A stretch of 63,934 nt of DNA, counting the filler, from an uncultured Methanosarcinales archaeon (GTDB lineage Archaea > Nanobdellota > Nanobdellia > Woesearchaeales > BS150m-G63), in NCBI GenBank assembly GCA_964630685.1. It is 4 parts of 4 records of this genome, joined end to end, with 100 filler letters (N's around TTAATTAATTAA, not from the genome) between each part and the next. Parts side by side here need not be neighbours in the genome. Positions count along the whole stretch, not along the records: positions 1 to 8,885 come from CAZVVW010000002.1; 3 more parts are not named here. One strand, written 5' to 3'. Under the pieces are notes generated by a model. It made no database searches and was not told the DNA's origin. It was given only the letters and a program-made list of their open reading frames with translations. Below are positions 1-54,491 of the stretch, piece after piece; the first letter of the stretch is position 1; each line of letters begins with the position of its first letter. Both the position numbers and the translations under genes were made by a program.

Positions 1-751
1 CTTTGATATCTCTTTCAAGATTTTCTAATTTGGTTACACCAAAACAAGTTGTTGCTATCAATGCTGTAGCAATTAATGCTCCTTTAGCAGTTGTTTTCCA
101 ATCTTTTTTGATTATTTTTTCTAAATCTGAATTATTGATTTGTCTTTTCTTTTTTTCAAGGTACTTTTTTTGTAACCAAGAATTTGATTTTAAAAGTTCA
201 TAATCGATTCCTTTTTGTTCAAAATCCAATAATTCTTTTTCTCCACCAAAATATTTTGTCAAGTAATGACCTCTAGTGGTTGGAGTGATTTTATGTTTAA
301 TATTATGATATTGTTTAGTGTTTATTTTTCCAGAAGAGTATAATTCTATGAGTGTTTCAGCATGTTCTCTTCCAGAGAGCAAATCTCGTTCAAATTTTTT
401 GTATTCTTTTTTTGAAAGTTTGTTTTCATTGGTTGTGAATTTAAAAGAATTAGGATTGATTTTTTGAGTTTTTGATTTAATTGCTGGAGGAATTTTGTAT
501 TCTCGATTACCTTTAGGAATTCCTTCAGCTAAAGGTAGTTGTTTTGAGAATAAAGACAATTCTAATTGATTCTTTGTTTGAGGTGCTTTTGTTTCTTGAG
601 GTTCTTTATTTTGAAGATATTTAACATATTTGAAAATATTATTATCCCAAAATTTACATTCATGATGATCTAGTTCTTTTGAATCTAGCATCTTCTTATA
701 AATTTGTTCCATGTGAGCGATGCTCATGCTATCTAGTTCTTGTTTTTCCAT
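1..751 (-). CDS. Hypothetical protein, 3'-truncated by window edge (~250 aa visible, hydrophobic segment near the visible end)
   Basis: Manual translation from ATG at 751 (MEKQELDSMSIAHMEQ...GALIATALIATTCFGV...) stays open to the window edge; AT-rich promoter-like spacer upstream; absent from the ORF track because it has no stop. Confidence 0.75.
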   Translation of the reverse strand, partial: MEKQELDSMSIAHMEQIYKKMLDSKELDHHECKFWDNNIFKYVKYLQNKEPQETKAPQTKNQLELSLFSKQLPLAEGIPKGNREYKIPPAIKSKTQKINPNSFKFTTNENKLSKKEYKKFERDLLSGREHAETLIELYSSGKINTKQYHNIKHKITPTTRGHYLTKYFGGEKELLDFEQKGIDYELLKSNSWLQKKYLEKKKRQINNSDLEKIIKKDWKTTAKGALIATALIATTCFGVTKLENLERDIK

Positions 752-823
752 TTGATATAGAATTAAGTATTATTTACTACTTAGTAATGAATAGTTTGAT
801 TATTTATAAATCTTTCGTTTTAT

Positions 824-2170
824 TTATTGGATTAGTGTGATAAAGATTGGTGAGTTTGTTAAGGTGATTTCAGAAGAATCTGTTGTTTTTTCTTGTCCTA
901 AGTAGTTTGTTATTTTTACTGTTCCTTTTATTTCAGAGTCTAAAGGGGTTGATTCACTTTTCCAAACAACATAAACTGGATTTTTGTCTTTAAAGAGATA
1001 TTTGTATTGGTTGTTTTTTATTTCTGTTACTTTTGTAAATCCATCTAATTTTTTGATTAATATTTTGTAAGTGTAAAAAGATTGTTTTTTTTCATTTGAT
1101 TCTGTTAATAATCCCGTATGTTCAAATAAGTCGTTTGGGATTTCTTCAAAATCCCAGTCAGATAGAAACCAAAAAATCTTGTTGTATCCATTGTTGAATA
1201 AAATTGTAAAATATTTTATCATATCTTCTGCTTGTTTTTCTTCTGTTGATCCGAGTTCCCATACACCCCATTTAGGATTTAAAGTTGCAGAAGGTAAACC
1301 AGATTCTGTAGAGATTAATTCTTTTCCGGGACAAATTGAGTTCCATTGAGTGTTGTAATTTTTTAATTTTTGAGAGGCTAACCCATTTGGTAAAATATGG
1401 GCATCTATAAAATCAAAATAAGGACAAATTGTTTGAATAGTGCTTTTCCATCCTGTTAATTCATTTAATTCTTTATTGAAACTTATCCCAATTTTGCAAT
1501 CAGGACAGTTTGATTTAATTTTTTCATAAGATGTTTTGACCATGTTCACATAATCTTGTTTTGTACCTTCCCAAAAATCTAAATCAACTTCATTCGCAAC
1601 TTGCCAATATTTTACAGAGGGTAAACCTTTCATTAAATAGTCTAGATATTCTTCATAAATTGTTTTCTCTTGTGGACTATAATCTGTTTTAAAATCAGGT
1701 TGGATTGTTGGACTTTTAGTTGTTGTAAGAATTGTTACAATTAAATTAAGATTTGAGTTGTATGTAGAGATTCCTTGAATCTTTGTTTTATTAGGATATT
1801 TATTGCAATAATAAATGCCTTCTGAACACGAACAATCTGTAAATTCTGTTTCTATACAACAGCTTTTGCAATCCATGATGCTTGAAGGTTTTCCTTTTTT
1901 GATTATAAACCATCCAGGGCTTTCAGATAACTCTTCTCTAACGTAAATATCTCCCAATTCTTTTATGTAAGGTATTGTTTCTTTAGGGTTTTTTCCTGAG
2001 ATATGAATTCCAAAGTGACTCTCTTTGGGAGATTCTTGTTGAGGATTACAGAGAGCTCGTTCTTTTGAGTTTATTTTTTTATCTTGGTTTAAATCACAAG
2101 AATCGTAATTTGAGACACACCCAACTATAAATATGAATAGTAGGACCAAGTAAATTAGATTTTTGTTCAT
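824..2170 (-). CDS. Secreted/lipid-anchored glycoside hydrolase (clan GH-A TIM barrel, GH39/GH5-like)
   Basis: Signal peptide ending FIVGC; YWQVANE acid/base motif, DFIDAH, ISTESG nucleophile motif; small DLNQDKKIN EF-hand/dockerin-like loop. Confidence 0.7.
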   Translation of the reverse strand: MNKNLIYLVLLFIFIVGCVSNYDSCDLNQDKKINSKERALCNPQQESPKESHFGIHISGKNPKETIPYIKELGDIYVREELSESPGWFIIKKGKPSSIMDCKSCCIETEFTDCSCSEGIYYCNKYPNKTKIQGISTYNSNLNLIVTILTTTKSPTIQPDFKTDYSPQEKTIYEEYLDYLMKGLPSVKYWQVANEVDLDFWEGTKQDYVNMVKTSYEKIKSNCPDCKIGISFNKELNELTGWKSTIQTICPYFDFIDAHILPNGLASQKLKNYNTQWNSICPGKELISTESGLPSATLNPKWGVWELGSTEEKQAEDMIKYFTILFNNGYNKIFWFLSDWDFEEIPNDLFEHTGLLTESNEKKQSFYTYKILIKKLDGFTKVTEIKNNQYKYLFKDKNPVYVVWKSESTPLDSEIKGTVKITNYLGQEKTTDSSEITLTNSPIFITLIQ

Positions 2171-2218
2171 TATAAGGTGTTAGGTTAATTGAGTTTATAA
2201 AAATATTCATTGATTAGA

Positions 2219-2551
2219 TTATTTTTTATGTTTAATATTGAATATTTTGTTTAAGTGAGTTTTTACATTATTTTCAAGGTGGGGGTACTCACAATTACTA
2301 CAATCCCAGATTTTTTTAGAAGGTAATTTTTTTGAATAAGTCCATTTTCCATTAGGATTATCAATTAAACAACCACCTTCTTGATTATCTGTGTCGTAGT
2401 TAGGACAATAACATAAAAAACAGTTTAAATTATCCATATCATGACAAGGAATTTTTTGTTTATAACACATACATTCAGCTGGGTGATTGGTGCTTCTAGT
2501 TTCATAGTTATATTCTTTAATTATTTGGTTGATGTGATTTTCAAGATTCAT
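2219..2551 (-). CDS. Cysteine-rich small domain (zinc-finger-like) protein
   Basis: PCHxxxxLNCxxCYCP...GGC...IWDCSNCEYPH pattern; start moved to ATG 2551 (MNLENH) because the longer ORF runs into the repeat region. Confidence 0.7.
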   Translation of the reverse strand: MNLENHINQIIKEYNYETRSTNHPAECMCYKQKIPCHDMDNLNCFLCYCPNYDTDNQEGGCLIDNPNGKWTYSKKLPSKKIWDCSNCEYPHLENNVKTHLNKIFNIKHKK

Positions 2552-2823
2552 TTTTAAAAAATAATCTAATTCCTTAATGTATTTATTTAATTTTGAAAGT
2601 TTAATAATTTTTTGTTTTTTTATTAATTGGGAAGATTCAACATCGCGATAATTGCTGTTAAATACCCCGACGACCAACGGGAGGAGAGTTCAACGTGGTC
2701 GACTGACCGAAGGGAAGGAGAAGTTGAATTCTTACGTTACAGCGATATAGGCGAAGCCGTACGTTCAGTTTAGGGTGTGGCTGTCAGTTTACACATTAGT
2801 TAGTTCTTAGAAAAGGGTCGCCT

Positions 2824-3807
2824 CTACATCTGGATATTTGGGCAGAAATTGTATTTATGAACTTGATAAATACTTAGTGCAGAATAATCTTTTAAGATGT
2901 CATTAAATGTTGTTTTAATGTCCATCATTATTTCTCTAAATTGTTCGGCACTTTCTACTTCTAGATCAATTTCAAATTCCCAAGGTCCAAGAGATTTTAC
3001 AATATAGATGATATTGGGTTTTCTTCTACAATATTCTCTTAATGTTTTCTCTCTTTGTTCTGAAATGTTTCTGAAACCTATCAAAACTTTGTAATGAAGA
3101 AAAGGATATTTTGATTCATTCGGAACGATGTTATAATGTCTTATCACGCCAGATTTTTGTAATTTCCTAATTCTCTCGCCTACTGCGTCAGCACTTAATT
3201 TAATTTCATGGGCAATATCAACAGCTGTATTTCTTGAATTTTCTCCCAACATTAACAGAATTTTCCAATCATATTTATCCATCTTAACTGGAGAAGGGAC
3301 AGCACCAAAAAATGATTCTCTATATGAACTTGCTTGTTTTTTGTGAATAAGATAATCACGAATAAAATAATCTCCTCTGATGATTGTTGCAATTTGTCTA
3401 TCTGCTATATATTCTCCAAATTTTTTATCTAATTCTGTTAATGTTTTGTCAAGAAATTCCATGTTTTTTGCCCATGTGCCAAAAGCTAAATCAAATCTCC
3501 CATCACAACTAGCAATCCAAACAACATTTGGATGATTTTTAAGAAAATCTATCAATTCTTTTTCTTTTCCACTATCAAGATTTTGTAAACGTAAAAAATT
3601 CTTGTGAACTGTAAAACCTAATTTTGAGATGTCAATAACTGAATAGAAGAAAGAAATGATTTTTTCTTTGATTAATCTCTTAATCCGAAATCCGACAACT
3701 TGCTTAGATAATCCTACTTTTTTGGCAATTTCTGAATTGGACTGTCTTGAATTAATATCTAGTTGATAGAGTATTTTCCTGTCTTTTAAGTCCAATTTTA
3801 CTGCCAT
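2824..3807 (-). CDS. Lrp/AsnC-family regulator, tandem-duplicated (2x HTH + RAM)
   Basis: LDLKDRKILYQLDINSRQSNSEIAKKVGLS and a second MDKYDWKILLMLGENSR..IAHEIKLS HTH; GxxD motifs in both RAM domains. Confidence 0.9.
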   Translation of the reverse strand: MAVKLDLKDRKILYQLDINSRQSNSEIAKKVGLSKQVVGFRIKRLIKEKIISFFYSVIDISKLGFTVHKNFLRLQNLDSGKEKELIDFLKNHPNVVWIASCDGRFDLAFGTWAKNMEFLDKTLTELDKKFGEYIADRQIATIIRGDYFIRDYLIHKKQASSYRESFFGAVPSPVKMDKYDWKILLMLGENSRNTAVDIAHEIKLSADAVGERIRKLQKSGVIRHYNIVPNESKYPFLHYKVLIGFRNISEQREKTLREYCRRKPNIIYIVKSLGPWEFEIDLEVESAEQFREIMMDIKTTFNDILKDYSALSIYQVHKYNFCPNIQM

Positions 3808-3908
3808 ATTGTTATTTAATCTTTATTAGTATATAAATTTAGCGATTTTGTAAAAAATATGGCTAATAAGTTTAATATACTCTTAACTACTCTTATGTTA
3901 CTACTAAG

Positions 3909-4913
3909 ATGGAAAGAAAACTAGGAATAACAAAAAAGCTAGAAGACATGGCAGAAGAAGGAGGTTTAGATAGTTCTGTGGCTATGCTAAATCTACCTAG
4001 TGCTAATTATTGTGAAAAAAGAGCAGAAAGAGTTTATGAGGATGGAGGATTACAGCAGTCATGTTATGGTTGTGTTACTCAAGGGATTAAATCAAAAGAT
4101 ATTATTGATATTGATGAAGTAAAAAGAGTTATTGACTTCTTTGCTGAAAATTATGATACTAAGTTTATTACTATCAATGGTCGTGGTGATCCATTTAACC
4201 CTAGATTAAGTGCAGATAATTTAGAAAAGATTCGTTATGCACACGACCAATGGGGAATACAAGCTTATGTTTTTACAGCGGGAAATAATCTTGATGATAG
4301 GACTTGTCAACTATTAGCTGAAAATGAAGCTAATGTGATGATTAGTTTATTTGGAAATAGGTTCATTGATGCAGATTTTTTTAATGGAAAAGAGTACCCT
4401 GCAATGCCTAAACCATTTCAGAACCAAGCACAAATAGCTGAGAATCTTAGAAGGTTAATTGAAACTTACAGAGGAAGTGAAAGACAACCAGAAGAAGGAA
4501 CAACAAGAATTGGAATTAATTATGTTGTCTCTCAGAGTGATTTAGTTGATGGTGGTGCGAAGATTAGGGCATTAAAAAAAGCAGCCAATGATAATGGATT
4601 ATTTTTTGTAGCTAATACTGATTTCCAAAAACGCCCAGATGATGCAGTACAAAAAGCTTTTGAACAAATGGCAAATCAATATACTGATTTTAATTTGAGA
4701 CATAGCACGGCAGTTAATGGTCAGTGTCAGATGGGTGCAGGTTCTTCAGCAACAGTAGATTTTGATGGGACTTTATTACGTTGTCCCTACATGGATTCAT
4801 CTGAAGGTAATGGGAGATTTAATATTTTATCAGGCGAGAGAATTAGAGAAGTAGTTAGTGTTTATATGGCGGATAGATCATTTCCATGCGTGATGAGAAA
4901 ACATCAGAAATAA
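3909..4913 (+). CDS. Radical SAM-like protein with atypical CX16CX2C motif and SPASM/twitch-like C-terminus
   Basis: C-EKRAERVYEDGGLQQS-CYGC; INGRGDPF (GGEP-like); FTAG; C-terminal CxxGxxxxxVDxDGxLxxCP. Confidence 0.7.
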   Translation: MERKLGITKKLEDMAEEGGLDSSVAMLNLPSANYCEKRAERVYEDGGLQQSCYGCVTQGIKSKDIIDIDEVKRVIDFFAENYDTKFITINGRGDPFNPRLSADNLEKIRYAHDQWGIQAYVFTAGNNLDDRTCQLLAENEANVMISLFGNRFIDADFFNGKEYPAMPKPFQNQAQIAENLRRLIETYRGSERQPEEGTTRIGINYVVSQSDLVDGGAKIRALKKAANDNGLFFVANTDFQKRPDDAVQKAFEQMANQYTDFNLRHSTAVNGQCQMGAGSSATVDFDGTLLRCPYMDSSEGNGRFNILSGERIREVVSVYMADRSFPCVMRKHQK

Positions 4914-5032
4914 GAGGCGACCCTGTTTTAGTTATAGTTTTTACATTCTATTGTTGTGACAAGTCACACAAAGCCACACCTGTTTTTATCGTATTAGTAA
5001 GAATTCAATTGTATTTAACATTAGGAAATCCT

Positions 5033-6837
5033 TGTTAAACTCTCCGTTAGGATTGATTTTTAGTGCAACGATGCCGAAGGCAAAAAATCAAAGTCGAATT
5101 TTCACTTATATAATTTAGAGCGTAGCGAGTGTAACTGTCCGAAGGACTAAAGAGTTGGGGGCGTTCAATCTAGCTCGTTAGAGCCTTAAAGAACAAAAGG
5201 ATTGTAAGATGGCATGAATTAAAACCGCTAAGTTTTTATTATACATCAACTTAAGGATAATTATGTTAAATCAACCATTAATTAAATTTAATTTTTTTGA
5301 AGATAGTTTTGAAGAAGAACTAAATAAATTTAAAGATATTATTAAGAATTTAAATAATAGTAATGTTCATTATTCTAGTTTAAAGAATTTTCCCCCTTGC
5401 ATTATTGATAAAATAATATCTAAGGCAGATTCTAATACTCTGTATCTATCAAGATCAAATGCAATTTTGAATAACAATCTTTATTTTGGTGAGAATTTTA
5501 AATCACTAAATCGATTATTCTTAAGATCGCCTTTTATCTCCAATAAATGTAAAAATTGTATTCATTTTAAAAAAAATATTTGTCGAGGTTTATTGAATAA
5601 AAAGTTTTTAGAAAAGAAAGAACAAATTATTAAAAAAATAGGCTTAAAAAGATATAACGCGGTTAAAAGCGACTATGAAAATGGTTTATTTGTTTTTGGC
5701 TCTGTTTGTAATAACTCATGTAGATTTTGTGTCGATAAATTTGCTCCAGAAGAAGTAGTAAAGAAAATTCCATTTTTGTCAGAATATGATATTATTCATT
5801 TTTTACATTATCTATCAAAAAAAATTCAATGGGTTGGGACAAGTTATCATTGTGCAAGTGGAGAATTTTTTGATCATCCTAAATTTTTCAAGATTATGGA
5901 ATTTTTGCCATTTTTTATGTCTTCTAAATCCTGGCTTTTTACTAATTGTATTAGTCTTGATGAAGATATGCTCAAGATAATTAAGAAGAAAAACTTGAAA
6001 TTAATATTTTCTATTCATACTTTAAATGATGACATTAGGAAAAGGATAATGAATTATAAAGAAAATTTTAAAATTAAGGATAAACTAAAATTAGTAGATA
6101 AATACAATATTCGATATGAATGTTGGTTTGTTCCATTAAAATTTCTTATCAAAAGTGGTGATACAGATAATTCATTGAACTATCTCGTTAATTTTACAAA
6201 TACCAGAAAAATATCATTTAGCACTTCTTCTCCTAGCAAATATATTCCAGAAGAGATGAAAAAAGAGCTTTTAGTAGATAATTCATTAGTAAATAAATTA
6301 ATGAGGTATAATCATAAGATTAATTATGTTGATAATGGAGCAAAAGATATTCATAATCATAAAAGTGAAGATAATTCTTTTAAAAAGATTGCTGATCATA
6401 TAAAAAAGATTTGTAATGATAAAGGGTTGTTGGTACTAGCACCGAAAAGATCTTTTGATATTTTTAAAAAGGAATTTAGGAATAATATAAATATTGAGAT
6501 TAGGAAAGTAAATTCTTTTTTAGGTGAGAATATCGATATTTCAGGAGTTCTTACAGTAAAAGATTATGTTGAAGTAATTCAAAAAAGTAATCCTGGATAT
6601 GATTATATTATTATTCCCAAAAATTCTTTTGATATCAATCTAGATGATTTTATGCTTAATAGTATTAATGAGATCTACCATTATAAAAATAAACCATTGA
6701 TATTACTTTGATTTCTTGACTTTTGAATCTAATAAATTCGACCGAAGGGAGTGTATATGTGCGAAGCACCGCCCCCAACTCTTTTTTTGGTTCTTTTTTT
6801 AAAAGAACATTTAATGAAAATTCGATTGAGTTTAACA
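5033..6837. mobile_element. Putative gene cassette 2 bounded by three nested inverted-repeat pairs (radical SAM cargo)
   Basis: TGTTAAACTC 5033/GAGTTTAACA 6828; TCGAATTTTCA 5094/TGAAAATTCGA 6815; AAAGAGTTGGGGGCG 5149/CGCCCCCAACTCTTT 6770. Confidence 0.6.
5263..6711 (+). CDS. Radical SAM Fe-S protein with DUF512-like C-terminal domain
   Basis: CNNSCRFC motif, SGEFF, extra CKNC..C cluster; C-terminal NSFLGENIDISGVLTVKD...IIIPKNSFD resembles DUF512. Confidence 0.7.
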   Translation: MLNQPLIKFNFFEDSFEEELNKFKDIIKNLNNSNVHYSSLKNFPPCIIDKIISKADSNTLYLSRSNAILNNNLYFGENFKSLNRLFLRSPFISNKCKNCIHFKKNICRGLLNKKFLEKKEQIIKKIGLKRYNAVKSDYENGLFVFGSVCNNSCRFCVDKFAPEEVVKKIPFLSEYDIIHFLHYLSKKIQWVGTSYHCASGEFFDHPKFFKIMEFLPFFMSSKSWLFTNCISLDEDMLKIIKKKNLKLIFSIHTLNDDIRKRIMNYKENFKIKDKLKLVDKYNIRYECWFVPLKFLIKSGDTDNSLNYLVNFTNTRKISFSTSSPSKYIPEEMKKELLVDNSLVNKLMRYNHKINYVDNGAKDIHNHKSEDNSFKKIADHIKKICNDKGLLVLAPKRSFDIFKKEFRNNINIEIRKVNSFLGENIDISGVLTVKDYVEVIQKSNPGYDYIIIPKNSFDINLDDFMLNSINEIYHYKNKPLILL

Positions 6838-6946
6838 TCGGGCCCTGTTATATTCGTTTCCCATACGAAGTGTGGGAAACCTGCGTCCGCAGAGTTTTTG
6901 GATTACTAATCAATTCGACCGTAGGGAGACTATATGTCCGAAGGAC
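6729..6946 (+). repeat. 41-bp direct repeat pair (6729-6769, 6906-6946) forming double hairpins; third degenerate copy at 5118-5147
   Basis: 35/41 identical; differences include a compensatory stem change (GTGC-GAA-GCAC vs GTCC-GAA-GGAC). Confidence 0.85.
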
Positions 6947-7175
6947 TGGGGAGTCTAGTTCCTTCTAAAGAGCGAATGCGATACATCAAGAACAAGAATC
7001 AAGGGGGAGTTCTTTTTATCAAAGCCGAAGGCTCTTTTAGTTAGTACATTTAGGGGAGTTCCGTTCAATACAAGCGAACACAGTGAGCCTTCAAGAACAA
7101 GAAGAGAGGGGCGTTCAATTTTTACCGAAACTAGATATTTATCACTAAGTAGTAGTTATTAAACGAAACATTTAA

Positions 7176-7198
7176 AAAGTAGTAAATTTTACTACTTT
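7176..7198. promoter_or_regulatory. Palindromic operator overlapping the promoter of the RHH gene
   Basis: AAAGTAGTAAA-T-TTTACTACTTT perfect inverted repeat next to a TTTAAA TATA-like box; extra AAGTAGTA half-site at 7147. Confidence 0.55.
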
Positions 7199-7203
7199 AT
7201 AGT

Positions 7204-7347
7204 ATGAAAATTAAAGTTAGTGTTTCAATAGAAAAGGAATTACATGAAAAGGTGAAGGATAAAGTAGCCGTAAGTATATTCAGAAATACTAGCCATCTTG
7301 TAGAGCATGCTGTTGAATTATTCTTAAAGGAGGCTCAAAATGAGTAA
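7204..7347 (+). CDS. Small ribbon-helix-helix (CopG/Arc/MetJ-like) regulator, 47 aa
   Basis: Manual translation MKIKVSVSIEKELHEKVKDKVAVSIFRNTSHLVEHAVELFLKEAQNE; beta-strand then helix-NxS-helix pattern; overlaps next start codon. Confidence 0.8.
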   Translation: MKIKVSVSIEKELHEKVKDKVAVSIFRNTSHLVEHAVELFLKEAQNE

Positions 7348-8885
7348 TTTGCAAACTTTAGAGGAAATTGCAAATAATCTTGGAAATATGTTTAGGGCGA
7401 GCCATCCAGCTACACCAGTTTCAATAGACATTGATGGAAAAACAGCTGAACAGATTAAATTAGAATTGGAAGCATTGGGTGAAGATTCAGAGCAAAATAT
7501 AGTCTATATAAATGAAAGAATAGCCGAGATAGAAAAACTAACTGAAGATCCTTCTGATTTGAGTTCACCAACAGCTATTCAGAATGCAGCAAGAATTATC
7601 TCTGATGTTAAAAGAACAAAATCAAATATAAATGTTGGTGGAGAAACTGCAAAACAGTTAAATGATGATTATAAACAAAAATTGTTATTTGAATCAGGTT
7701 TTGAAAGCTATGAAGATGTTTCTACACAGATTGATAATCTATCATCTCAAAGAGCTAATCTAAGACAAAAATTTCTTGGAGGTCTTAGGTTTAAAGGTCA
7801 AATCAAAGATTTGGGTTCCAAAATTAATTCACTCTATGATCTTTCTCACACTCAACATGATGGAGTTAGAATTGGAGAACTTGGATACTTAGAAACTAGA
7901 CGTTTTGAGGATGCACAAGGCAAGTTATTTGGTAGATTTGCTAGCCAGTTATTTGATCAATATGATCAATTAGCAAGCCAATTAGTTAGAACCGATGATG
8001 AACAAAAAGCAGTTGCCCCTGCAATCCTTGAATCATTAACTGATGATTATGTCTCTAAATATTTTATGTCAAGAATTGATGCAGAATTAGAAGCAAATCA
8101 AAAACGAGATGATCATTACGGCAGAGAGAAAGTTGCAGTTTTAAGTGATCCAGCTCTTGTAGGTGAAGCATTATCTGTTCTTAGAGAAGGATTGAATCAA
8201 TCTCATGTTTTATGGGCAGGACAATCATATACTGAAGAACAAGAAGAAAGAGCAAGAGAATTGGATTCAAGATTAAGTGCTTTGCCCTATGAATTGAAAA
8301 GTATTGTTGAAAGAGGCATGATTAGAGGTAACAAAACTACAAATGATGAATTTGCAGAATTTGCAGATTATCTGACTCAAGTACCTATTGATATTCAACG
8401 AAGAGAATTATTGACATCACTTTCAACAGCTAAAGAACATGTATTGAGTGCTATATCTGATGATGATTTACCATATTCAATTACTGGTCAAAGATGGGAT
8501 CTTGAAAGATCTGCTAGCAACCTTGAACACTCATTAAAATCAACTGAGAAATCTGATTTTCTTAAAGAATTGGATATGGAAAAATGGGATGCTTTCAGAA
8601 ATAATGCAGGTGTTAGAGAAGTCTATGGTGCTGGAGCATTAGACTCATTTAATGATTTGATTAGGGGAGAAGTTTTTGATAGATTATTAGTAACACCAGA
8701 ACACACAAATGAATCAGTTGGGCTTGGTTACAAAGCTCTTTGGTTTAAAGATGCAGACTCAGTTGCCTATAACCTATTAAATTTCTGGAGAGAACCAGGA
8801 CATTCAGGAGAGCAACCCTTTTTATCAACACACTCAAGTTCAGAAAATACTCTTGGTGCACAATATATTGCATCATTAACAGATG
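7340..8885 (+). CDS. Hypothetical helical/coiled-coil protein, truncated at contig end
   Basis: Long ORF with AAGGAGG RBS; no motif recognised. Confidence 0.75.
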
Positions 8886-8985
8886 NNNNNNNNNNNNNNN
8901 NNNNNNNNNNNNNNNNNNNNNNNNNNNNNTTAATTAATTAANNNNNNNNNNNNNNNNNNNNNNNNNNNNNNNNNNNNNNNNNNNN
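8886..8985. other. Artificial contig linker
   Basis: N-run/TTAATTAATTAA/N-run (stops in all frames). Confidence 0.98.
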
Positions 8986-10153
8986 TGTGGGTAACGATTA
9001 TTACTTTAATGTAACTGGGTTCACTAATTATAGTGTTGGTGATTATATTGCTGAAAGTGTTGAGGTGGTTTCCTCAGCAAATGAAGATGTTATAGAGCCT
9101 GTTAATTATAAAATTGAGATGAATTATCTTGGTTTTGAATATAAGGGTGTTGATATGGGTGAATTGTTTAGGATTGTGATTGAAGAAGCAGGATATAGAT
9201 TACTTGATGGAGGGGTTGGTAATATGATTGGTACTGTTGGGCAATCTCTTGAAGTTGGTGATACTATTGAGTTGAGTTTGATGGCTATGAGATTAATTGA
9301 TTTAAGTGAATGGGTAGTAGAAGATATGGTGTTATATGTTAGAGAAGGTGTTTTGATTTCAGATGCTGTTAATGATATGTTGAGCGCTTTTGAAGAGGGT
9401 GTTGTTGAGATTGAATTAAGAGGTGTTGATGAGAATTCTGTTAATGTAGTGGTTGAAGGCGAAACTGTTGAAATTGGATTAGGAAAAACTGCTGAGTTTG
9501 ATATTAATAATGATTGGGTAACTGATTTAAGTGTTGAGTTTGTGGGTGTTGATGGAGGAGTTGTTGATTTGTTGGTGATACAGAAAGTTCCTGCTATTAG
9601 TTTGATAGATATTGATGGGAGAGTTGTTGAAGAAGAGGTTACTGGGGATGTTGTTGAAGAAGAGGTTACTGGGGATGTTGTTGAAGAAGAGGTTACTGAA
9701 GAGGGAAGTGATTTAACTGGTGGTGCTTATATGTTTATAGGTAGAGCTATTGGAGAAAATGGTATGGCTTTGCTTAGCTATTTTGTTGTTTTGATAATTG
9801 TTGTTGTAGGAATGTTGTTATCTCATGGACTGTCAAGGGTGGTTGTGGCTGTTCCAGAAAGAAAAGAAAAAATTAAAAAATTAAGTCTCTTACTAAAAGA
9901 TGTGCCAGAAGGAAGTGGTTTTGTATTAAAAGGTGGTAGAGTTGTGAAAAATATTGAAGAAATGGTGTTTGAGCTTATGAGTATGGGGGGGGAAGAATTT
10001 GTATGTTATGTTAATTGGAGTAAAAACGATATTGCTGAATGGATAAAATATGTTTTTAGAGAAAATGGACTTGCTGAAACTTTGAAAGGAGAGAAAGATA
10101 AAGAAAAAATTGCTGTTTTACTTTATGAAGCTTTGAGGAATGCTAAGAAATGA
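8986..10153 (+). CDS. 5'-truncated membrane-anchored surface protein with DUF5752-like cytoplasmic tail
   Basis: Begins mid-module (YYFNVTGFTNYSVG); TM helix; FVLKGG.VVKN...VNxxKNDIAEWIKYVF..xxLA tail. Confidence 0.7.
9623..9698 (+). repeat. 27-bp coding tandem repeat x~2.8 (VVEEEVTGD)
   Basis: gttgttgaagaagaggttactggggat repeated. Confidence 0.9.
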
Positions 10154-13100
10154 ATTCAAAAAAAAGAGTTTGGAACAAGAAAGGGTATGGTGAATTAGTG
10201 GGAGTTGGGATTATCATTCTGCTTGCATTAGTTTTCACTGTTTCAAAACCTTTGATAACTGGATTGGTTGCTGGAAATACTAGTTTAGATAACATTAGCC
10301 TGAATTTGAGTGTTGAGAATATGAGTGTTGTTGAAGAAAATGCTTCTGTTGGTGTAATAGTGGTTGAAGAAAACGTCTCTTTATTTGAAGAAGTGATGAC
10401 TAATATTACTGAAAATGAAACTGTGGAAAATATAAGTTTGGAGAATTTGGGTTTAGAGAATGTTACTGGAAATGTGGATGTTAATGTAAGCGAGATTAAT
10501 CTTAGTTTAGATAATTTGAGTATTGAGAATGTTTCTATTAATACGAGTGTGAATATTACTGAAAATATTAGTATTAATGAAACTCTGGAAGTTGTTGAAA
10601 AATTGATTGTGGAAAACATAAGTTTGGGGAATATTACTGCTGAAAATGTTAGTGTGAATTTAAGTGCTAATGTTACTGAAAATATTACTATTAATGTGAC
10701 TACTGAAGAAAAAATAGTGGGGAGAGTGATGATTAATAGACCTGTCAAGTTTATCAAAAAAATTAAACTTACTGCTTCTAAAGAAAATCTGATTGTTGAA
10801 TTGCCTAAGAATGCTAGTAATATTGAAGTTAAGAAAATAACTGGAAGAGTTGAGAAAGATATTTCTAACAAAGTTGTTGTTAAGAAAGGTGAAATAGTGG
10901 AAGAGTTAAGCGAACATAATCTTGCAATACTTACTGGGGGGGTTGTTGGTGGTGTGGGTGATGGATTGTTGTTTAAATTGATTGATTGGCTGAAAGGATT
11001 GTTTAGATTTACAGGTTATGTTGTTGAGGAAATCACAGAAGACTCGATGAACTTGTCTTCAGTACTTTCTTCAACTGAAATAATTGTTGAAGAAAGCGTA
11101 GAAGAGATTGAGGTAGAATATGAACTGCCTGGCCCTACTGCTGTTGAAGAAGAATTGGGGGGCGGGCGAAAAAGAATAGTTGTGAGTTCTGAAATACATT
11201 ATGAAGATATTTTGGCTTATACTTTTATTCCTGATAGTGCTGTTGAGAGTGTTAAATTGTATTGGATTGTTGATGGAGAACGTGAAAGCGTAAACTTTGA
11301 TGGATATGATACTACTGGGACTGGATTGGTTGATTATGTTGAATGGATTGTGCCAAGTTTGAGTAATCAGACTTATGAGATTGAAATTAATGTATTGAAT
11401 CCTATCGAATATCTGCGTGATGGAGATACTTGGACTATGATGTTTAACACTACTGGAACTGCTAATCTGAGTATTAGAAGTACTAATGCTTATTGGGAAG
11501 AGGTTATGGTTGATAATGGTGAAAGTGTTGATGAGATGAGATTTGTGGATTTCAAATGTGGAGAAGATTCTCTACTCGATGTGTTGAAGATTATTAATAA
11601 TGATGGGTATGTTTATGATTATAGCTCAATTAGTGATGATGATTCAATAAAACCTGTTGAGTTTTTAGTGGAAGATTACAGCTGTAGTGAAATTGGAAGG
11701 TTTGTGAATTATATGAATATAGGTGGTTATGCTACACTAATTCTTGAGTTTAGCAATCAAGATATGAGTGTAACTGATTATGCTTATGATCCAAGCTATA
11801 CTTATGACAGTTGTGATAATATCACTGTGAGTGGAACTCATGAGATGAATGCAAGTATAGATTATTATAATGATACTGAGCTTTGTTTTAATATTAATGC
11901 TTCAGATGTTGTGTTTGATTGTGGGGGATATCACATAGACGGAGAATATAATGCAAATTATGTTAATACTTTTACTGCAATAAATATAGATAATGTTACT
12001 AATGTTACTGTGAAAAATTGTGATATTACTGACTTTACTTATGGGATCTATTATGATGGTGGTTCTGATAATGGATATATTTTCAATAATTCAATCCACT
12101 TGGTAGACAGTAATTATACTATTGCAGGAATTGTTTCCGATACTTCTGATAATGTTTTGATTGATTCTAACACTATAAGAAATATTGGAGATGGGGGTGT
12201 TGGAAGTATGGGTATTTCTGTATCTGAATGTACCGGAAATAATGTGACTAACAATATTCTCCATGATATTTCTGGAAGTGGAATATATGTCAGGGGGTCT
12301 GGACATCTTGTGGATAGCAATGAGATTAATGACACTCAAAGTGGAAATAGTTTTGCTGCGATTCAATTAGATAATTGTGATGATAGTTTAATTAATGCTA
12401 ATGAGCTTATTGGAACTAATGGATGTAGTGCTAAATGTAATAATTATGGAATAGAATTAGACACTTCTAGTAATAACAATATAACTGGAAATACTATTAA
12501 TAATCCAACCGATAATTTTGTGTATCTTCATTCTTCCTCCATTGGAAATAGGATTGTTGATCAAGTGTTTAATATAACTCAATTTGGTGCTGGTGTGAAG
12601 TTGACTAGTGCTTGTGAAAATAATACTCTGGACAATCTTACTATACATAATTCATATTTAGATGGAATTGAATTTAGTGATAGCTCTAATAACAATAATA
12701 TTACTGATGTTGAAATGAAGTACAATAATTATTCTGGAATTAGTTTTGATGATTCTCATAACAATAGTGTTTATGCTGTTTTGATTACTGATAGTCAGGA
12801 TTCTGCTGTTTATTTCTTGAATTCGTCTGGAAATGAATTTATGGATTCTACTTTAGATGGCAATTCTTTACACTGGGGGGATGATGCTGATGTTTGGGTT
12901 GAGGGAACTGCTAGTGGTACAAATACTTTTGTGAATATTTCTTTTAATGAAAGTGCTACTTTATTCAGTGATTCTGGAAGTAGTGCCATCTATGTTAATT
13001 GGTATCTTGATGTTTATGTGAATGATAGTAGTGGTGCTATTAATGGAGCTAATGTGAGTGCTTGGGATACTGATGATTTGTTTGTGTTTTCTGTTTTGAG

Positions 13101-13650
13101 TGGTGGAGATGGATGGATAGCGAGACAAAACATTAGTGAGTATTATGAAAATTGTTCTAGCTGTAATTGGGTTGCTGGAACTAAAAATTATCTGACTAAT
13201 TATACTTTGAATAATACTAAGAGTGGATATGGTGGGGATTCTCGTGGGGTAAATCTTACTGATAATGGTGTGGTGTATGTTACTTTGAGTGTACTTATCC
13301 CCTCTAATAAGAAGTTTGCTATTACTACCAGTTATGATGATATTGTTGGGAGTATTGATGATACTGGAAACATGTTTATTAGGGGTACTTTGTCAGAAGA
13401 ATCTTCAATTAGTTTGAGTCCTGAAGCTAATTCTTTTATCTTGCAGGACAATACTGGGAGAGATATTGCTTATGTTTCAAACACAGGTAATTTGTTTTTG
13501 GTTGGGGAATTGACTGAGAATGCTGTGATGAGGGTTCCTGTTACTGCTTTGAAGTTTGTGAATGCTTCTGATTCTTTAGTTGCTTTCTTTGATAATAGTG
13601 GAAATCTTAAATTGAAGGGTTCTTTGGCTCAGAGTTATAGTGATCCTTAA
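10150..13650 (+). CDS. Large surface glycoprotein with parallel beta-helix (PbH1/NosD-like) repeats
   Basis: N-terminal TM; dense N-x-S/T sequons; INASDVVFDCGG..I, NVTVKNCDI and GIxLxxSxNNxIxxN repeats. Confidence 0.85.
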   Translation: MNSKKRVWNKKGYGELVGVGIIILLALVFTVSKPLITGLVAGNTSLDNISLNLSVENMSVVEENASVGVIVVEENVSLFEEVMTNITENETVENISLENLGLENVTGNVDVNVSEINLSLDNLSIENVSINTSVNITENISINETLEVVEKLIVENISLGNITAENVSVNLSANVTENITINVTTEEKIVGRVMINRPVKFIKKIKLTASKENLIVELPKNASNIEVKKITGRVEKDISNKVVVKKGEIVEELSEHNLAILTGGVVGGVGDGLLFKLIDWLKGLFRFTGYVVEEITEDSMNLSSVLSSTEIIVEESVEEIEVEYELPGPTAVEEELGGGRKRIVVSSEIHYEDILAYTFIPDSAVESVKLYWIVDGERESVNFDGYDTTGTGLVDYVEWIVPSLSNQTYEIEINVLNPIEYLRDGDTWTMMFNTTGTANLSIRSTNAYWEEVMVDNGESVDEMRFVDFKCGEDSLLDVLKIINNDGYVYDYSSISDDDSIKPVEFLVEDYSCSEIGRFVNYMNIGGYATLILEFSNQDMSVTDYAYDPSYTYDSCDNITVSGTHEMNASIDYYNDTELCFNINASDVVFDCGGYHIDGEYNANYVNTFTAINIDNVTNVTVKNCDITDFTYGIYYDGGSDNGYIFNNSIHLVDSNYTIAGIVSDTSDNVLIDSNTIRNIGDGGVGSMGISVSECTGNNVTNNILHDISGSGIYVRGSGHLVDSNEINDTQSGNSFAAIQLDNCDDSLINANELIGTNGCSAKCNNYGIELDTSSNNNITGNTINNPTDNFVYLHSSSIGNRIVDQVFNITQFGAGVKLTSACENNTLDNLTIHNSYLDGIEFSDSSNNNNITDVEMKYNNYSGISFDDSHNNSVYAVLITDSQDSAVYFLNSSGNEFMDSTLDGNSLHWGDDADVWVEGTASGTNTFVNISFNESATLFSDSGSSAIYVNWYLDVYVNDSSGAINGANVSAWDTDDLFVFSVLSGGDGWIARQNISEYYENCSSCNWVAGTKNYLTNYTLNNTKSGYGGDSRGVNLTDNGVVYVTLSVLIPSNKKFAITTSYDDIVGSIDDTGNMFIRGTLSEESSISLSPEANSFILQDNTGRDIAYVSNTGNLFLVGELTENAVMRVPVTALKFVNASDSLVAFFDNSGNLKLKGSLAQSYSDP

Positions 13651-16389: not shown

Positions 16390-16635
16390 ATGAGCTTATT
16401 TGTTGAGCTAATTGATAAAAAGATAGTAGATATTCTAGAGGTATTTACAAACAGCAAAGAAGAATTACTTCATCTGAGTATGGTTGCTGAAAGAGCTAAA
16501 GTGCCACTTACTTCTACTCATAGAATAGTTAATTCTCTTGTTGATAAAACGCTGATTGAACAGGTAATTGTTGGCAAGATGAAATTATACAAGTTATCCA
16601 AAACTAAAGAGGTTGAGAGATTATTTAAGAAATGA
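16390..16635 (+). CDS. Small winged-HTH transcriptional regulator
   Basis: HLSMVAERAKVPLTSTHRIVNSLV...GKMKLYKL. Confidence 0.8.
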   Translation: MSLFVELIDKKIVDILEVFTNSKEELLHLSMVAERAKVPLTSTHRIVNSLVDKTLIEQVIVGKMKLYKLSKTKEVERLFKK

Positions 16636-19600
16636 TAAAACTAAATAAAAAAAGGAATGTGAAGTTTTTCTTAATAATCTTAGCGCTTTTGATATTAATA
16701 GGTCCGCTGAATGTTTATTCTATGGAAAGCGGGAACTACAGCAGTCCAAGTGCTGGAGTTTCCAGTGGAGTCAAGTCTGGTTCTAGTAATTATGGATCTA
16801 ATTTTGGTATTGTAAACTTGGCAGGGATGGCTGTTTCTGCAAGTTATAAGATATTTGAAGGATTATGGAACACATTTGTTTCTCAAGGGGTGAGTTGTAA
16901 TTCTGAGATAGATGAATCTACAACTCTTAGTTATGATATAACTGGTTGTACTAATGATTATATCATAAATATAACTGCTGATGATGTGGTGTTTGATTGT
17001 GACGGACACACAATACAAGGAAAGGGTAGTAATGGAGTTTATGTGACTGCTGATAATGTTACTGTTAAGAATTGTAATATTAGTTTAAATGGAACTGAAA
17101 GTGATAAAGCTGTTTATTATTTTAATTCTGATAATGGAATCATAGAAAATAATACTGTTTATGTTGAGAGATATATTGGAATTTACATTGAGTCTTCTGA
17201 TGGTAATACTATATTTAACAATAATGCAACTGCAAATAGTGGGAAAGGGGGAATTAAGATATATTCTGGTGATGATAATTTAATTTATGATAATATTTTT
17301 ATTAGTCTGTTATATGGAATATCTTTGAGATGGACTTCTGAGGGGAATATGTTTTTGAATAATAATATAACTGCTACTAGTTCAACTTTATTTTATGACT
17401 ATACTAGTGCGGGTTATACAAACACCTTAATTTACAATAACAGTTTTGGTGAAGTAATGTGGGAAAGTGAAGATCTATCAATCTCAGAAGCAGGAACATT
17501 AAACTTAGGAACAAACTTAGATATAACAAACAATAATATTTTCGTAAATTCAACTAAATTCTCTGGACTTAATCAAAGCGCAAATTTGACATTTAACAAT
17601 GTGATTATTGCTGGAAGTGCATATCCATTCAAAGAGGGAATATTTTGTTCAGATGGAGAATGTAATAATTTAGAACAAGTTGGAAATAATTATACATATG
17701 ATGTTAATGGATTTAGCAATTATAGTGTGGGAGATGCATGTAATCAAAACATATCTTCTTCAACAAGTTTAGATTACAACATAACTGGATGTACAAATGA
17801 TTATATCATAAATATAACTGCTGATGATGTGGTGTTTGATTGTGACGGACACACAATACAAGGAAAGGGTAGTAATGGAGTTTATGTGACTGCTGATAAT
17901 GTTACTGTTAAGAATTGTAATATTAGTTTAAATGGAACTGAAAGTGATAAAGCTGTTTATTATTTTAATTCTGATAATGGAATCATAGAAAATAATACTG
18001 TTTATGTTGAGAGATATATTGGAATTTACATTGAGTCTTCTGATGGTAATACTATATTTAACAATAATGCAACTGCAAATAGTGGGAAAGGGGGAATTAA
18101 GATATATTCTGGTGATGATAATTTAATTTATGATAATATTTTTATTAGTCTGTTATATGGAATATCTTTGAGATGGACTTCTGAGGGGAATATGTTTTTG
18201 AATAATAATATAACTACAGAAACTTCAAATTTAATTTATGATCCAACTGGAGGAAGTTACACAAACACTTTAATTTATAATAATTCATATGGAGAAGTTA
18301 AGTGGGCTGACAAAGGAGATTTAGGGGTTACAGAAGCTGGAACACTTTACTTTGGAAGCGGGATAGACATTTCTGAAAATTATATTTTTGTGAACTCAAG
18401 TATGTTTAATGGATTGAATCAGTCAGCTAATTTGAGTTTCTATAATATTACTGTGGGTGGAACTGCAAGAGCATTTAGAAATGGTGTTGCTTGTGCTGAT
18501 AGTGTCTGTGGAGGATTTAGTAATGTGGGTAACGATTATTACTTTAATGTAACTGGGTTCACTAATTATAGTGTTGGTAATAACACTTTATCTGAAGCTC
18601 AAAATGTTTCTGTTGTTTCTTCTGATGCTTTGAATAGAACTAACGGCACCCTTACTGGAAGTTTTGATTACTATGATGGTAATGGAGATGTTCAGAGTGC
18701 TAATGAGACTAGGTGGTATAATAATTCAGTAGAAGTTAGCGCATTAGCTAACTTAACTTTGGTTAATAGTGGGAATGTCTCAAAAGGAGAGAACTGGACT
18801 TTTAGTGCTAGAGTTCATGATGGGTTTGAATGGAGTGATTGGGTTGGATCTAATGCTTTGACTATTTTGAATTCTGAACCTGTTTTAGAATCAATTAGTT
18901 TGAGTGAAAATATTACAACTTTAACAGATATAAACTGTACTATAAATATAATTGATGAGGATGCTGAAGACACTTTGTATGCTAATTACACTTGGTATAA
19001 AGATGGTGTTGCTAATCTAACTGGACAATCTCAAGTAGTAAATGGACAATTTAGTGTTATTACACTCGGATATGGAGCCACAACCAATGGGGATAATTGG
19101 AGTTGTGGAGTTACACCTTATGATTCTGAAGACTATGGAGATGAAAAAAGTGGGGAAGAAATTATTGATTCTTGTGGAATGATTGTGAATGGAAATGCTG
19201 AATTAAAACCTTATGAGAATATAAGTTGTAATGGAACTGCAATTATTATTGGATCTAATGATGTAGTGTTTGATTGTAGGGGTGCTGATATCACTTATGG
19301 TATGACTGACGAAGGGTATGGGATTTATAATTATGGTAATCCTAATGTAAGTATCAAGAATTGTAATATCACTGAAGGAGATTATTCTGCTTCAGGTGAA
19401 CATGCAATATATTTCGATGGAAAAGATTCTGAATTATTTGGAAGAGATATTTATAATAATACTTTAACAACCAATAGTGGAAATAGTTATGGAGTATTTT
19501 TATCTAATTATTATGGGGGTATGAATATTTCTGAAAATATTATTATTACTAATGGGTTAGGCGGTAAGGGGATAGTGTTGTCTGATTCTTTCTTAACTAA

Positions 19601-37534: not shown

Positions 37535-37634
37535 NNNNNNNNNNNNNNNNNNNNNNNNNNNNNNNNNNNNNNNNNNNNTTAATTAATTAANNNNNNNNNN
37601 NNNNNNNNNNNNNNNNNNNNNNNNNNNNNNNNNN
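37535..37634. other. Artificial contig linker
   Basis: N/TTAATTAATTAA/N. Confidence 0.98.
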
Positions 37635-43432: not shown

Positions 43433-43496
43433 GACAATATTCAATTATTCTAATAACACAATTTTTATAAATAGTTTAATTTATCTTAACTTTAGT

Positions 43497-43578
43497 GCCA
43501 CGATCGCATAATCTGGTATTGCGCAAGATTGGAAATCTTGTCCCTATGGGATTCCCGGTTCAAATCCGGGTCGTGGCG
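43497..43578 (+). tRNA. tRNA-Ser(GGA)
   Basis: GCCACGA/TCGTGGC acceptor stem; CAAGA-TTGGAAA-TCTTG anticodon arm; long variable arm; GGTTCAAATCC. Confidence 0.95.
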
Positions 43579-43698
43579 TATTTTTTTTTTTATAGTGTTT
43601 TTAAATTAAGATAATCTATTAAAGAGTGTGCTATGTAATTAAGTTAACTTCGTTAACTTATATTGCATCTGGGGGGCTACGACCCAAAACGTAGGTTC

Positions 43699-43723
43699 CA
43701 AATCCGGGTCGTGGCGTATTTTT
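43699..43723 (+). repeat. 25-bp duplicate of the tRNA-Ser 3' end (att-like)
   Basis: caaatccgggtcgtggcgtattttt also at 43561-43585. Confidence 0.9.
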
Positions 43724-44664: not shown

Positions 44665-44805
44665 GGGCCCATAGCTCAGCCTGGCTAGAGCGATTGGCTC
44701 TTAAATTGTGTCTGCATACTTTGTAGACAAAGTCTAGAAACCAATAGGTCGCGGGTTCAAATGTCTGGTTAAAATATAATCAGTCTGAAAGTCCCGTTGG
44801 GCCCA
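44665..44805 (+). tRNA. tRNA-Lys(CTT) with two introns (anticodon loop ~44704-44739; T-loop ~44762-44791)
   Basis: GGGCCCA/TGGGCCC acceptor stem; ATTGG-CTCTTA...ACCAAT; GCGGGTTCAAA...TCCCGT with bulge-helix-bulge (TTCA/TGAA helix, AAT and AGT bulges). Confidence 0.88.
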
Positions 44806-44929
44806 TTTCATAATCAAATAAAGCGAGGAGAGTTGGTGGGACCTCTAAGGTTTTAGCCTTAGTGTGTCGCACATCCTTTTGACCAGATTTTTGAAAAAAT
44901 CTGCGTTGGGCCCATTAATTTAACCAAAA

Positions 44930-54399: not shown

Positions 54400-54491
54400 T
54401 TAACATTAAGTTGATATTATATTATTTATATCTTTGTCTATACTTTTTAGTAGTTCAATTGAAATATGTTTGATTTAGACAAAAAAGAGAA

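Follow-up and report, generated by a model that had tools for sequence, protein, structure and literature searches.

In a 63,934-nucleotide (nt) stretch of DNA from an uncultured Methanosarcinales archaeon that GTDB places in the Woesearchaeales (assembly GCA_964630685.1; the whole stretch is hereafter the window), we observed protein-coding genes organized into modules, each of which begins with 5'-TGTTAAAY and ends with RTTTAACA-3'. The noncoding flanks of a module are complementary to each other in three to seven collinear blocks of up to 15 base pairs (bp), and this complementarity is specific to the module. Between two modules there is only T-Y (or T-A-T) and a G+C-rich palindrome of 6 to 11 nt. 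The finding is located in the first contig (CAZVVW010000002.1; positions 1-8885) of an AT-rich window (31% G+C). An initial annotation of this DNA had described three miniature hairpins at the module boundaries, J1 to J3, resembling the attC sites of integrons; it overlooked that the arms of these sites are the mere tips of module-specific inverted repeats of 100-190 nt. The arrangement looks like a set of movable gene cassettes, yet it fits no known cassette system. Our evidence base comprises two genomes and five J sites.

Long inverted repeats bracket each gene module

Module 1 (2656-5020) contains an AsnC-like gene and a radical SAM gene, and module 2 (5033-6837) contains a gene for a radical SAM/DUF512 protein. 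The arms of the J sites form the outermost 8-10 bp of interrupted, collinear inverted repeats of 100-190 nt that are particular to each module. In module 1, the left flank (2656-2826, + strand) comprises blocks at 2656-2665, 2722-2735, 2742-2752, 2773-2782, and 2807-2825, and the right flank (4913-5020, + strand), which starts at the radical SAM stop codon, comprises blocks at 4913-4931, 4972-4992, 4997-5010, and 5011-5020. These flanks form 62 pairs with each other, the principal helices being 2656-2665 with 5011-5020, 2722-2735 with 4997-5010, 2773-2782 with 4972-4981, and 2814-2825 with 4913-4924, together with smaller blocks. After J1, an insert of about 55 nt (2666-2721, + strand) has no partner in the other flank and holds CCCGACGACCAACGGGAGGAGAG followed by GACCGAAGGGAA.

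Module 2 is built in the same manner, with helices of 10, 13, and 15 bp between the left flank (5033-5163, + strand; blocks 5033-5042, 5092-5104, and 5149-5163) and the right flank (6770-6837, + strand; blocks 6770-6784, 6815-6827, and 6828-6837). The pairs are 5033-5042 with 6828-6837, 5092-5104 with 6815-6827, and 5149-5163 with 6770-6784, the last being a perfect 15-mer (AAAGAGTTGGGGGCG). A partnerless insert of about 49 nt lies at 5043-5091 (+ strand), so that both modules carry an extra segment of roughly 50 nt behind the arm of the left flank, and T7 and T8 runs occur between the first and second blocks of the right flank. The left flank of a third module (6846-7120, + strand) begins with TGTTATAT and contains a direct repeat described below (Y3) and a G-rich block, GAAGAGAGGGGCG followed by TTCAAT, that resembles the inner block of module 2. 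The partner flank of module 3 would lie past the contig end at 8885.

Duplex energies supported specific pairing of the two flanks of each module when compared to mononucleotide shuffles of one flank (12-60 per test). The cognate flanks of module 1 gained -36.6 kcal/mol (z score [z] of -9.8) with RNA parameters and -25.5 kcal/mol (z -8.9) with DNA parameters, and those of module 2 gained -36.0 (z -8.2) and -31.1 kcal/mol (z -11.7), respectively. Non-cognate flanks reached -7.4 to -23.4 kcal/mol in eight combinations with RNA parameters and -5.2 to -10.9 kcal/mol with DNA parameters. The helices between cognate flanks were nested and collinear, and the two flanks that share one J site showed no significant pairing (DNA parameters, z -1.0). 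When the 26 gene flank pairs of the window were examined with 130-nt flanks, module 1 alone stood out (z -14); module 2 requires longer flanks, as its outer blocks are situated 160-230 nt before the start codon. By local alignment alone, the inverted flanks gave a z of only about 3, and the signal resides in the chain of blocks.

Junction sites as probable joints between modules

The three sites given by the initial annotation are present as written: J1 (ATTCAACA-TC-GCGATAATTGC-TGTTAAAT) at 2635-2663, J2 (ATTTAACA-TT-AGGAAATCCT-TGTTAAAC) at 5013-5040, and J3 (GTTTAACA-TC-GGGCCC-TGTTATAT) at 6830-6853, all intergenic and on the + strand, with lengths of 29, 28, and 24 nt. Their placement at module boundaries is not random. 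The pattern TTYAACATY-N4-16-TGTTAWA matched only J1, J2, and J3 when both strands of the 63,934 nt were searched, whereas 0.045 matches were expected (mean of 200 dinucleotide shuffles) and none of the 200 shuffles reached three; this pattern was derived post hoc from the sites themselves, and the enrichment is inflated accordingly. Looser patterns were not enriched: YAACATY..TGTTR matched 11 times in the window, mostly within genes, and AACR-bulge-palindrome-TGTT matched 19 times in 430,829 nt, where shuffles averaged 16.3.

Of the attC-type cores that had been assigned to the sites, AAC and GTT are present throughout and RYYYAAC fits all three left arms, but the full GTTRRRY fits two of three right arms, failing in J3 (GTTATAT). 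The tips are clean palindromes in J2 and J3, and J1 has one G.T mismatch. Across all five sites, including two from the related locus described below, the invariant columns are AAC.T and TGTTA, the G+C-rich palindromic tips are wholly different, and the spacing from AAC to GTT varies from 10 to 15 nt, which, in line with the initial annotation, argues against a fixed 11-6-11 duplex site.

The reported match between the right arm of one site and the left arm of the next was borne out. The reverse complement of the J1 right arm equals the J2 left arm at 8/8 positions, as does that of the J2 right arm the J3 left arm, and 16 of 720 arm permutations matched equally well. Identity between arms was 16/16 across modules and 20/24 within sites. 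Pairing of arms is thus better across modules than inside sites, so that "hairpin" probably misnames the descriptive unit. Furthermore, the tips are self-complementary up to the center, leaving loops of 0-2 nt, and selection acting on a hairpin loop would not yield such tips. We therefore read each J site not as a free hairpin but as the place where two bracketed modules join, together with a short filler palindrome. In single-stranded DNA (ssDNA) folding, J1 (-1.8 kcal/mol) and J3 (-1.0 kcal/mol) were no better than their shuffles; J2 alone was (-4.5 kcal/mol, z -2.9), with 1 of 200 shuffles folding equally well. A covariance model of the five sites scored J1, J2, and J3 at 30.4, 35.7, and 28.3 bits.

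Flank complementarity is maintained in a related locus

The closest among 27 related loci that we found, L001, encodes the two proteins of module 1 with 74% and 83% amino acid (aa) identity to those of the window. L001 has a left J site, GAGAAACG-TAT-GCATGC-TGTTAGGC (8838-8862, 25 nt; ssDNA fold, -0.3 kcal/mol), and a right J site, ACTTAACG-TAT-CGGCGGCCG-TGTTATTA (11078-11105, 28 nt; -2.0 kcal/mol), both of the same build as those in the window. Their positions are orthologous, the left site lying to the left of the 3' end of the AsnC-like gene and the right site to the right of the radical SAM 3' end. The distance to a start codon is 83 nt for J1 and 84 nt for an L001 site. With attC-type cores, the L001 sites share only AAC and GTT. 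As counted by eye from the printed sequences, the L001 arms form 7/8 pairs across the module (two of them G.T), compared to 4/8 and 5/8 within the sites.

The L001 flanks differ in sequence from those of the window yet pair with each other, with a gain of -33.9 kcal/mol (z -7.8) with RNA parameters and -21.4 kcal/mol (z -5.0) with DNA parameters. Pairing of L001 flanks with window flanks gained just -7.6 and -17.7 kcal/mol. Because the L001 flanks pair together but not with those of the window, complementarity has been kept despite sequence change. Both mismatches within the L001 helices are G.T on the + strand. The insert segment CCCGACGACCAACGGGAGGAGAG is also conserved in L001, with approximately 22 of 25 positions identical (invariant alignment columns by our own count). 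The gene to the left of module 1 differs between the genomes, being a zf-like gene in the window and one for ribosomal protein L21e in L001.

Several observations concern the open reading frame (ORF) of the AsnC-like gene in L001, which encodes 346 aa (8857-9897, - strand) and is about 19 codons longer than in the window. Its extension crosses the inverted repeat and a CCCGACGACCGAAGGG box, and its stop codon lies in the right arm of the junction. The same frame in the window, which reads SPPVGRRGI before its stop codon, also ends in the J1 arm but is disconnected from the AsnC-like gene. A six-frame reading of the G+C-rich spacers revealed no conserved ORF other than this L001 ORF running through the repeat. 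D-R-R-E-like strings that appeared in the reading were dismissed as a product of the repeated DNA box.

Asymmetric features lie on one DNA strand

The unpaired dinucleotide that had been noted at the same place in each site was upheld as a strand-specific feature: T-Y, or T-A-T in L001, is on the + strand at all five sites. Likewise, all three GACCGNAGGGAG boxes of the window are on the + strand (0.14 expected), with one box at the orthologous place in L001 and none in the 26 other loci. Six of the seven C-GNA-G mini-hairpins of the window occur within 2750-7033, and all six are on the + strand. The genes at 2219-2552 and 2824-3807 are on the - strand despite these + strand features. Since the asymmetric features are all on the + strand regardless of gene direction, their polarity follows the DNA strand and not transcripts. 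According to PMC13037366, DNA mini-hairpins of the d(C-GNA-G) type greatly exceed their RNA counterparts in stability, and ssiA, a single-strand initiation site, includes a CCGAAGG hairpin.

Three direct repeats also lie on the + strand. Y1 (5096-5196; direct z 6.8-7.1 to Y2 and Y3) contains the mini-hairpin GTCCGAAGGAC; Y2 (6718-6769; direct z 13), which is 82% identical to Y3, contains GACCGAAGGGAG and GTGCGAAGCAC; and Y3 (6896-6995) contains GACCGTAGGGAG and GTCCGAAGGAC. Between Y3 and Y2, there is a compensatory change in a stem.

Possible roles of the module ends

Our tentative interpretation, which we favor over the others considered here, is that the J sites are joints in an array of cassette-like gene modules that act via single-stranded fold-back DNA. 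In the working form that we infer, the + strand would be single stranded, and the two ends of a module would fold back on each other as a panhandle. The panhandle would present the AAC/GTT junction to a strand-specific enzyme encoded elsewhere, which may be a tyrosine recombinase or an HUH-type nuclease, and the modules would behave, or would once have behaved, like cassettes. In favor of this interpretation are the arm rule, the module-specific flank pairing with its covariation in L001, the + strand location of the asymmetric features, and the greater stability of C-GNA-G mini-hairpins as DNA. Flank pairing is also not general to the gene pair or to the genome: it was seen at 2 of the 15 tested loci that have the pair, and module 1 stood alone among the 26 flank pairs. 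Acquisition of modules is suggested by the different left neighbor of module 1 in the two genomes and by the rarity and lower G+C content of the module 2 gene, as expected of an acquired module.

A number of results weigh against this interpretation. No sign of movement was seen: the module between J1 and J2 consists of a core DPANN gene pair (AsnC-like and radical SAM) that occupies the same place in both genomes, and at 13 of the 15 tested loci the pair has neither such flanks nor the sites. No recombinase, transposase, or HUH protein was found among the 55 proteins of the window (8 + 47) or the 13 proteins of L001, so that the tyrosine recombinase anticipated by the initial annotation has no candidate in the 64-kb window or in 11 kb of L001. 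The stand-alone folded substrate that it envisaged was also not upheld, as four of the five J sites folded as ssDNA no better than their shuffles (-0.3 to -4.5 kcal/mol over the five) and the hairpins are unstable. Moreover, no hairpin model explains the self-complementary tips. The search for further copies that it had called for, made with the covariance model, found only the training sites and no sixth copy in 430,829 nt, which leaves five known J sites in two genomes. Duplex energies did not distinguish the + from the - strand, the direct Y repeats lie on both sides of module 2 outside the inverted repeats and have no role in the model, and a 2-kb panhandle would depend on single-stranded DNA of considerable length.

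Taken one step further, the same interpretation would give a Woesearchaeota-like DPANN lineage an undescribed cassette system, with covarying ssDNA panhandle ends, a strand-specific enzyme that joins or exchanges modules in trans at a minimal AAC-R-T..palindrome..TGTT joint, and the GACCGNAGGGAG C-GNA-G boxes as markers of strand and position. We consider this fuller version doubtful. If true, it would constitute a third route to gene arrays beside integrons and Xer-bounded modules, in archaea that have very small genomes and whose gain and reshuffling of accessory genes are poorly known. If the modules move, the system would be a compact, structure-defined form of recombination, built on sites under half as large as the smallest attC and dependent, unusually, on each module's two ends pairing with one another. 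Should the modules be immobile, covarying complementarity over a 2-kb range around protein genes still wants an explanation. The small hairpins are uninformative as a lone search target, with the loose motif at chance level, and the informative signal is the pairing of module flanks. A literature search for DPANN mobile elements and terminal inverted repeats gave nothing relevant by title or abstract, which is thin support for calling the arrangement undescribed.

We also considered it possible, but unlikely, that the stems form at the RNA level. The flanks would then pair in a long + strand transcript, or flank RNA would pair with an mRNA 3' end, with the genes looped out as are those for 16S and 23S rRNA and with each J site representing the bases of neighboring stems plus a short linker. 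Such stems would explain the nested, collinear long-range helices and their covariation between genomes equally well. Both mismatches within helices are G.U compatible on the + strand, the array genes are mostly on the + strand, and the tRNA genes of this genome are rich in introns, which indicates that bulge-helix-bulge processing is active. However, the AsnC-like gene of module 1 is on the - strand, and a + strand transcript would run antisense to this gene. In archaea, transcription ends at oligo-T tracts, and T4-T8 runs lie on the + strand between the inner and outer partner strands (4926-4987 and 6782-6801). By eye, the cofold structures showed no bulge-helix-bulge motif (4 bp between two 3-nt bulges), and RNA folds of the three intergenic regions were no better than shuffles (z -0.07, 0.02, and -1.06). 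The region at 2300-7500 contained no Rfam family, with a permissive scan yielding seven weak matches that were all far under gathering scores; the gathering scan of the whole window returned only three tRNAs, and ARAGORN found no tRNA in the J region. In addition, GNA triloops are, according to PMC13037366, typical of DNA and not of RNA.

Quite unlikely, in our view, is an origin of the modules as cargo of transposon-like elements that had long terminal inverted repeats, of the mobile insertion cassette or foldback type, with the modules now fixed and the junctions functionless. The 5'-TG...CA-3' termini, the 8-bp perfect terminal repeat with subterminal repeats, the lack of an enzyme among the same window and L001 proteins, and the fixed position in two genomes are all consistent with such relics. 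Against them, we saw by eye no target-site duplication at either module, and within one genome the inner blocks are not alike from module to module, which would make them unreadable by one transposase. Decay would also lose complementarity, yet the window and L001 have diverged in sequence with pairing kept, and the three modules stand head to tail just 8-13 nt apart.

Duplex DNA operators are an improbable explanation. Here, the palindromic TTAACA...TGTTAA would bind a dimeric regulator, such as the Lrp/AsnC-type protein whose gene lies between J1 and J2, and would coordinate the cluster of radical SAM genes. While AT-rich palindromic half-sites do adjoin a helix-turn-helix (HTH) gene and lie upstream of promoters, the AAC-to-GTT spacing is variable (10 to 15 nt) and the arms are not constant but vary with the neighboring module. 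The gene pair lacks such flanks in 13/15 loci, the covariance model matched no locus but L001, and the complementarity of the 100-190-nt flanks is left unexplained. Finally, that these are true attC sites of a cluster without an integrase (CALIN), as reported for Nanoarchaeota, is very hard to credit: RYYYAAC/GTTRRRY cores and the cassette arm rule are present and archaeal integrons, the majority of them CALINs, have been described, Nanoarchaeota included (PMC9668308), but the sites measure 24-29 nt as against 57-141, have neither an L box nor a 5-6-nt unpaired central spacer on both arms, form unstable hairpins, and delimit modules holding up to two divergent genes with their own promoters, so that attC membership by length and structure is close to refuted.

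Gene content and other features of the window

The contigs of the window are chained by linkers of an N run, TTAATTAATTAA, and a second N run (8886-8985, 37535-37634, and 61853-61952), and two further 100-N gaps occur at 23292-23391 and 56424-56523. Because the window consists of several joined contigs, apparent genes that span linkers or gaps are joining artefacts. The intron-containing tRNA genes indicate an archaeal origin, and protein matches indicate DPANN archaea of the Woesearchaeota/Nanoarchaeia type. In the first contig, a lipoprotein-like protein of 448 aa (824-2170, - strand) and a small cysteine-rich zf-like protein (2219-2552, - strand) are encoded to the left of module 1. The module 1 genes encode a double Lrp/AsnC-type HTH protein of 327 aa that is a conserved DPANN protein (2824-3807, - strand) and its divergent partner, a radical-SAM-like protein of 334 aa (3909-4913, + strand), for which we found at least 173 homologs at an E value of ≤1e-100 and 139 homologs, respectively. 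The module 2 gene (5263-6711, + strand) encodes a radical SAM and DUF512 protein of 482 aa and has a G+C content of 0.21-0.27, below that of neighboring genes. This protein is a rare accessory enzyme: a set of 5.8 billion clustered proteins contained only nine relatives at an E value of ≤0.001, including an identical one on a 1905-nt contig. Module 3 contains a gene for a protein of at least 515 aa with no assigned function, cut at the contig end (to 8884, + strand), and a small ORF of about 45 aa (7206-7343, + strand; MKIKVSVSIEKELHEKVK...) that overlaps the start of the gene at 7340 and, judged by eye, looks like a ribbon-helix-helix protein.

The three spacers are G+C richer than the genes and dense with repeats that the remainder of the window lacks. 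The + strand has more G than C along the whole contig; by the usual skew rule, and on that ground only, the + strand would be the lagging-strand template. Among the genes at 2219-6711, one has a zf-like domain (PF04071), one encodes the AsnC/NirDL-like double HTH protein, which weakly matches the siroheme decarboxylase AhbA/AhbB, and two encode radical SAM proteins; this content recalls clusters for tetrapyrrole modification and hints at one functional theme. A possible module 0 (2197-2586, no strand assigned) consists of the zf-like gene between AT-rich inverted repeats (2197-2228 and 2555-2586; 81% over 32 nt), with weak flank pairing (gain, -16.6 kcal/mol; z -2.4).

Several candidate features were rejected. 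Readings of the region as a split or fragmented tRNA, rRNA, C/D-box RNA, or replication origin (origin recognition box, ORB) were dismissed, as the defining motifs were missing by eye. A 15-nt perfect complement between the module 1 coding regions (3167-3181 and 4832-4846) reflects the same five codons in both genes, which read G-E-R-I-R, and is probably a coincidence of codon usage instead of a stem. We also discarded the notion that contigs carrying close homologs (2397 and 1905 nt) end at J sites, since the nearest AsnC-like homologs are on contigs of 1533 and 3289 nt and such lengths resemble ordinary metagenome fragmentation. A blastn search with two spacers found no plasmid match and, in phages, just a 29-nt AT-rich match in 11 records.

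Elsewhere in the window, a tRNA-like gene with two intervening sequences (GGGCCCATAGCTCAGCC... ...GGTTCAAAT...TCCCGTTGGGCCCA) lies at 44665-44812 and was reported by neither ARAGORN nor the Rfam gathering scan; a second copy of its 3' acceptor end, GCGTTGGGCCCA, is found at approximately 44904-44915. The region at 43496-43722 contains tRNA-Ser(GGA). Behind it come a hairpin of 9 perfect bp that has a GAA/TTC loop and GTTAAC in its arms (43640-43660) and, at 43692-43718, a near duplicate of the last ~27 nt of this tRNA gene that could be an old integration scar or a piece of a split gene. An intron-containing tRNA gene at 57366-57461 was given an undetermined identity and a four-base anticodon by ARAGORN; a second at 56083-56207 was found by Rfam only, and tRNA-Ser(CGA) at 54491-54576 by ARAGORN only. 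Very large secreted-type proteins with beta-helix/NosD repeats and strongly positive GC skew are encoded at 9000-13650 and 16632-21140, and 27-nt tandem repeats occur internally at 9607-9712.

Comparison with known systems

The module ends resemble the processing stems of archaeal 16S and 23S rRNA in having long-range helices between flanks and neighboring stems split by a short spacer. In contrast to those stems, the window genes are protein coding with one on the opposite strand, no bulge-helix-bulge was seen, and T runs lie inside the flanks. Mobile insertion cassettes, such as MIC231 of Bacillus cereus, carry passenger genes in nonautonomous elements similar to miniature inverted-repeat transposable elements. 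The window modules share with these elements passenger genes between terminal inverted repeats, TG...CA termini, and the lack of a transposase, but they differ in having no target duplications, in repeats that are module specific and covarying, and in being packed head to tail; no further module copies with the same ends were found in the 430 kb examined. IS200/IS605 elements (similar to palindrome-associated transposable elements) have subterminal hairpins on one strand at either end, lack terminal inverted repeats, and encode TnpA (Y1 HUH). In the window, same-strand hairpin repeats (Y1 and Y2) flank module 2, yet terminal inverted repeats are present; no TnpA was found among the 55 window proteins. 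Strand-specific mini-hairpins of the CCGAAGG and GCGAAGC types liken the region to ssDNA signals such as ssiA of RSF1010, the phage G4 origin, and the phage N4 hairpin promoters, as described in PMC13037366. Unlike those signals, the window mini-hairpins are chromosomal and occur in several copies beside gene modules, with no known primase or replicon context.

The pdif modules of Acinetobacter plasmids are likewise faced by mutually matching arms. J2 is 28 bp long and can be written as 11-6-11, and TGTTAAAT presumably equals the outermost 8 nt of the E. coli dif XerD arm. The archaeal dif site described in PMC2958812 has two 11-bp arms around a 6-bp spacer and is single copy, whereas three J sites of unfixed length (24, 28, and 29 nt) occur within 4.2 kb and their inner arm positions match at only 7-8/11 by our own count. 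Because the centers of J sites share no homology, duplex strand exchange between them is not expected.

The likeness to attC lies in AAC/GTT cores around a variable center where structure rather than sequence is kept. Integron cassettes have a start that complements the inverse core at their end, and it is structure and not sequence that is read (PMC5027507); the start of each window module is likewise complementary to the inverse core at its end (8/8 and 8/8). The unpaired bases of the J sites are on the AAC arm in the strand that has four of the five array genes (module 1 onward), an arrangement in the top strand as described for attC in PMC5027507. The array also resembles a CALIN in having no integrase nearby, and the archaeal integrons of PMC9668308, which have attC sites of the ordinary kind and were found with the standard attC model, were mostly clusters without an integrase. 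The differences are in size and architecture: attC sites are 57-141 bp long (PMC5027507), and J sites are 24-29 nt with a single 2-3-nt bulge on one arm only and no L box. The R and L boxes of attC, with a 5-6-nt unpaired central spacer in each arm and 2-3 extrahelical bases, do not fit the J sites, which have no unpaired central spacer and no variable terminal loop (loops of 0-2 nt versus at least 3 nt). Thus, the kinship with attC and dif that was initially suggested does not extend to membership in either class. Compared to integron cassettes, the window modules hold core genes, two of them divergent, with their own promoters, and their complementarity runs 100-190 nt into both module ends. 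Our best guess, by analogy, is that these modules may work like integron cassettes or Xer-bounded dif modules while belonging to neither.

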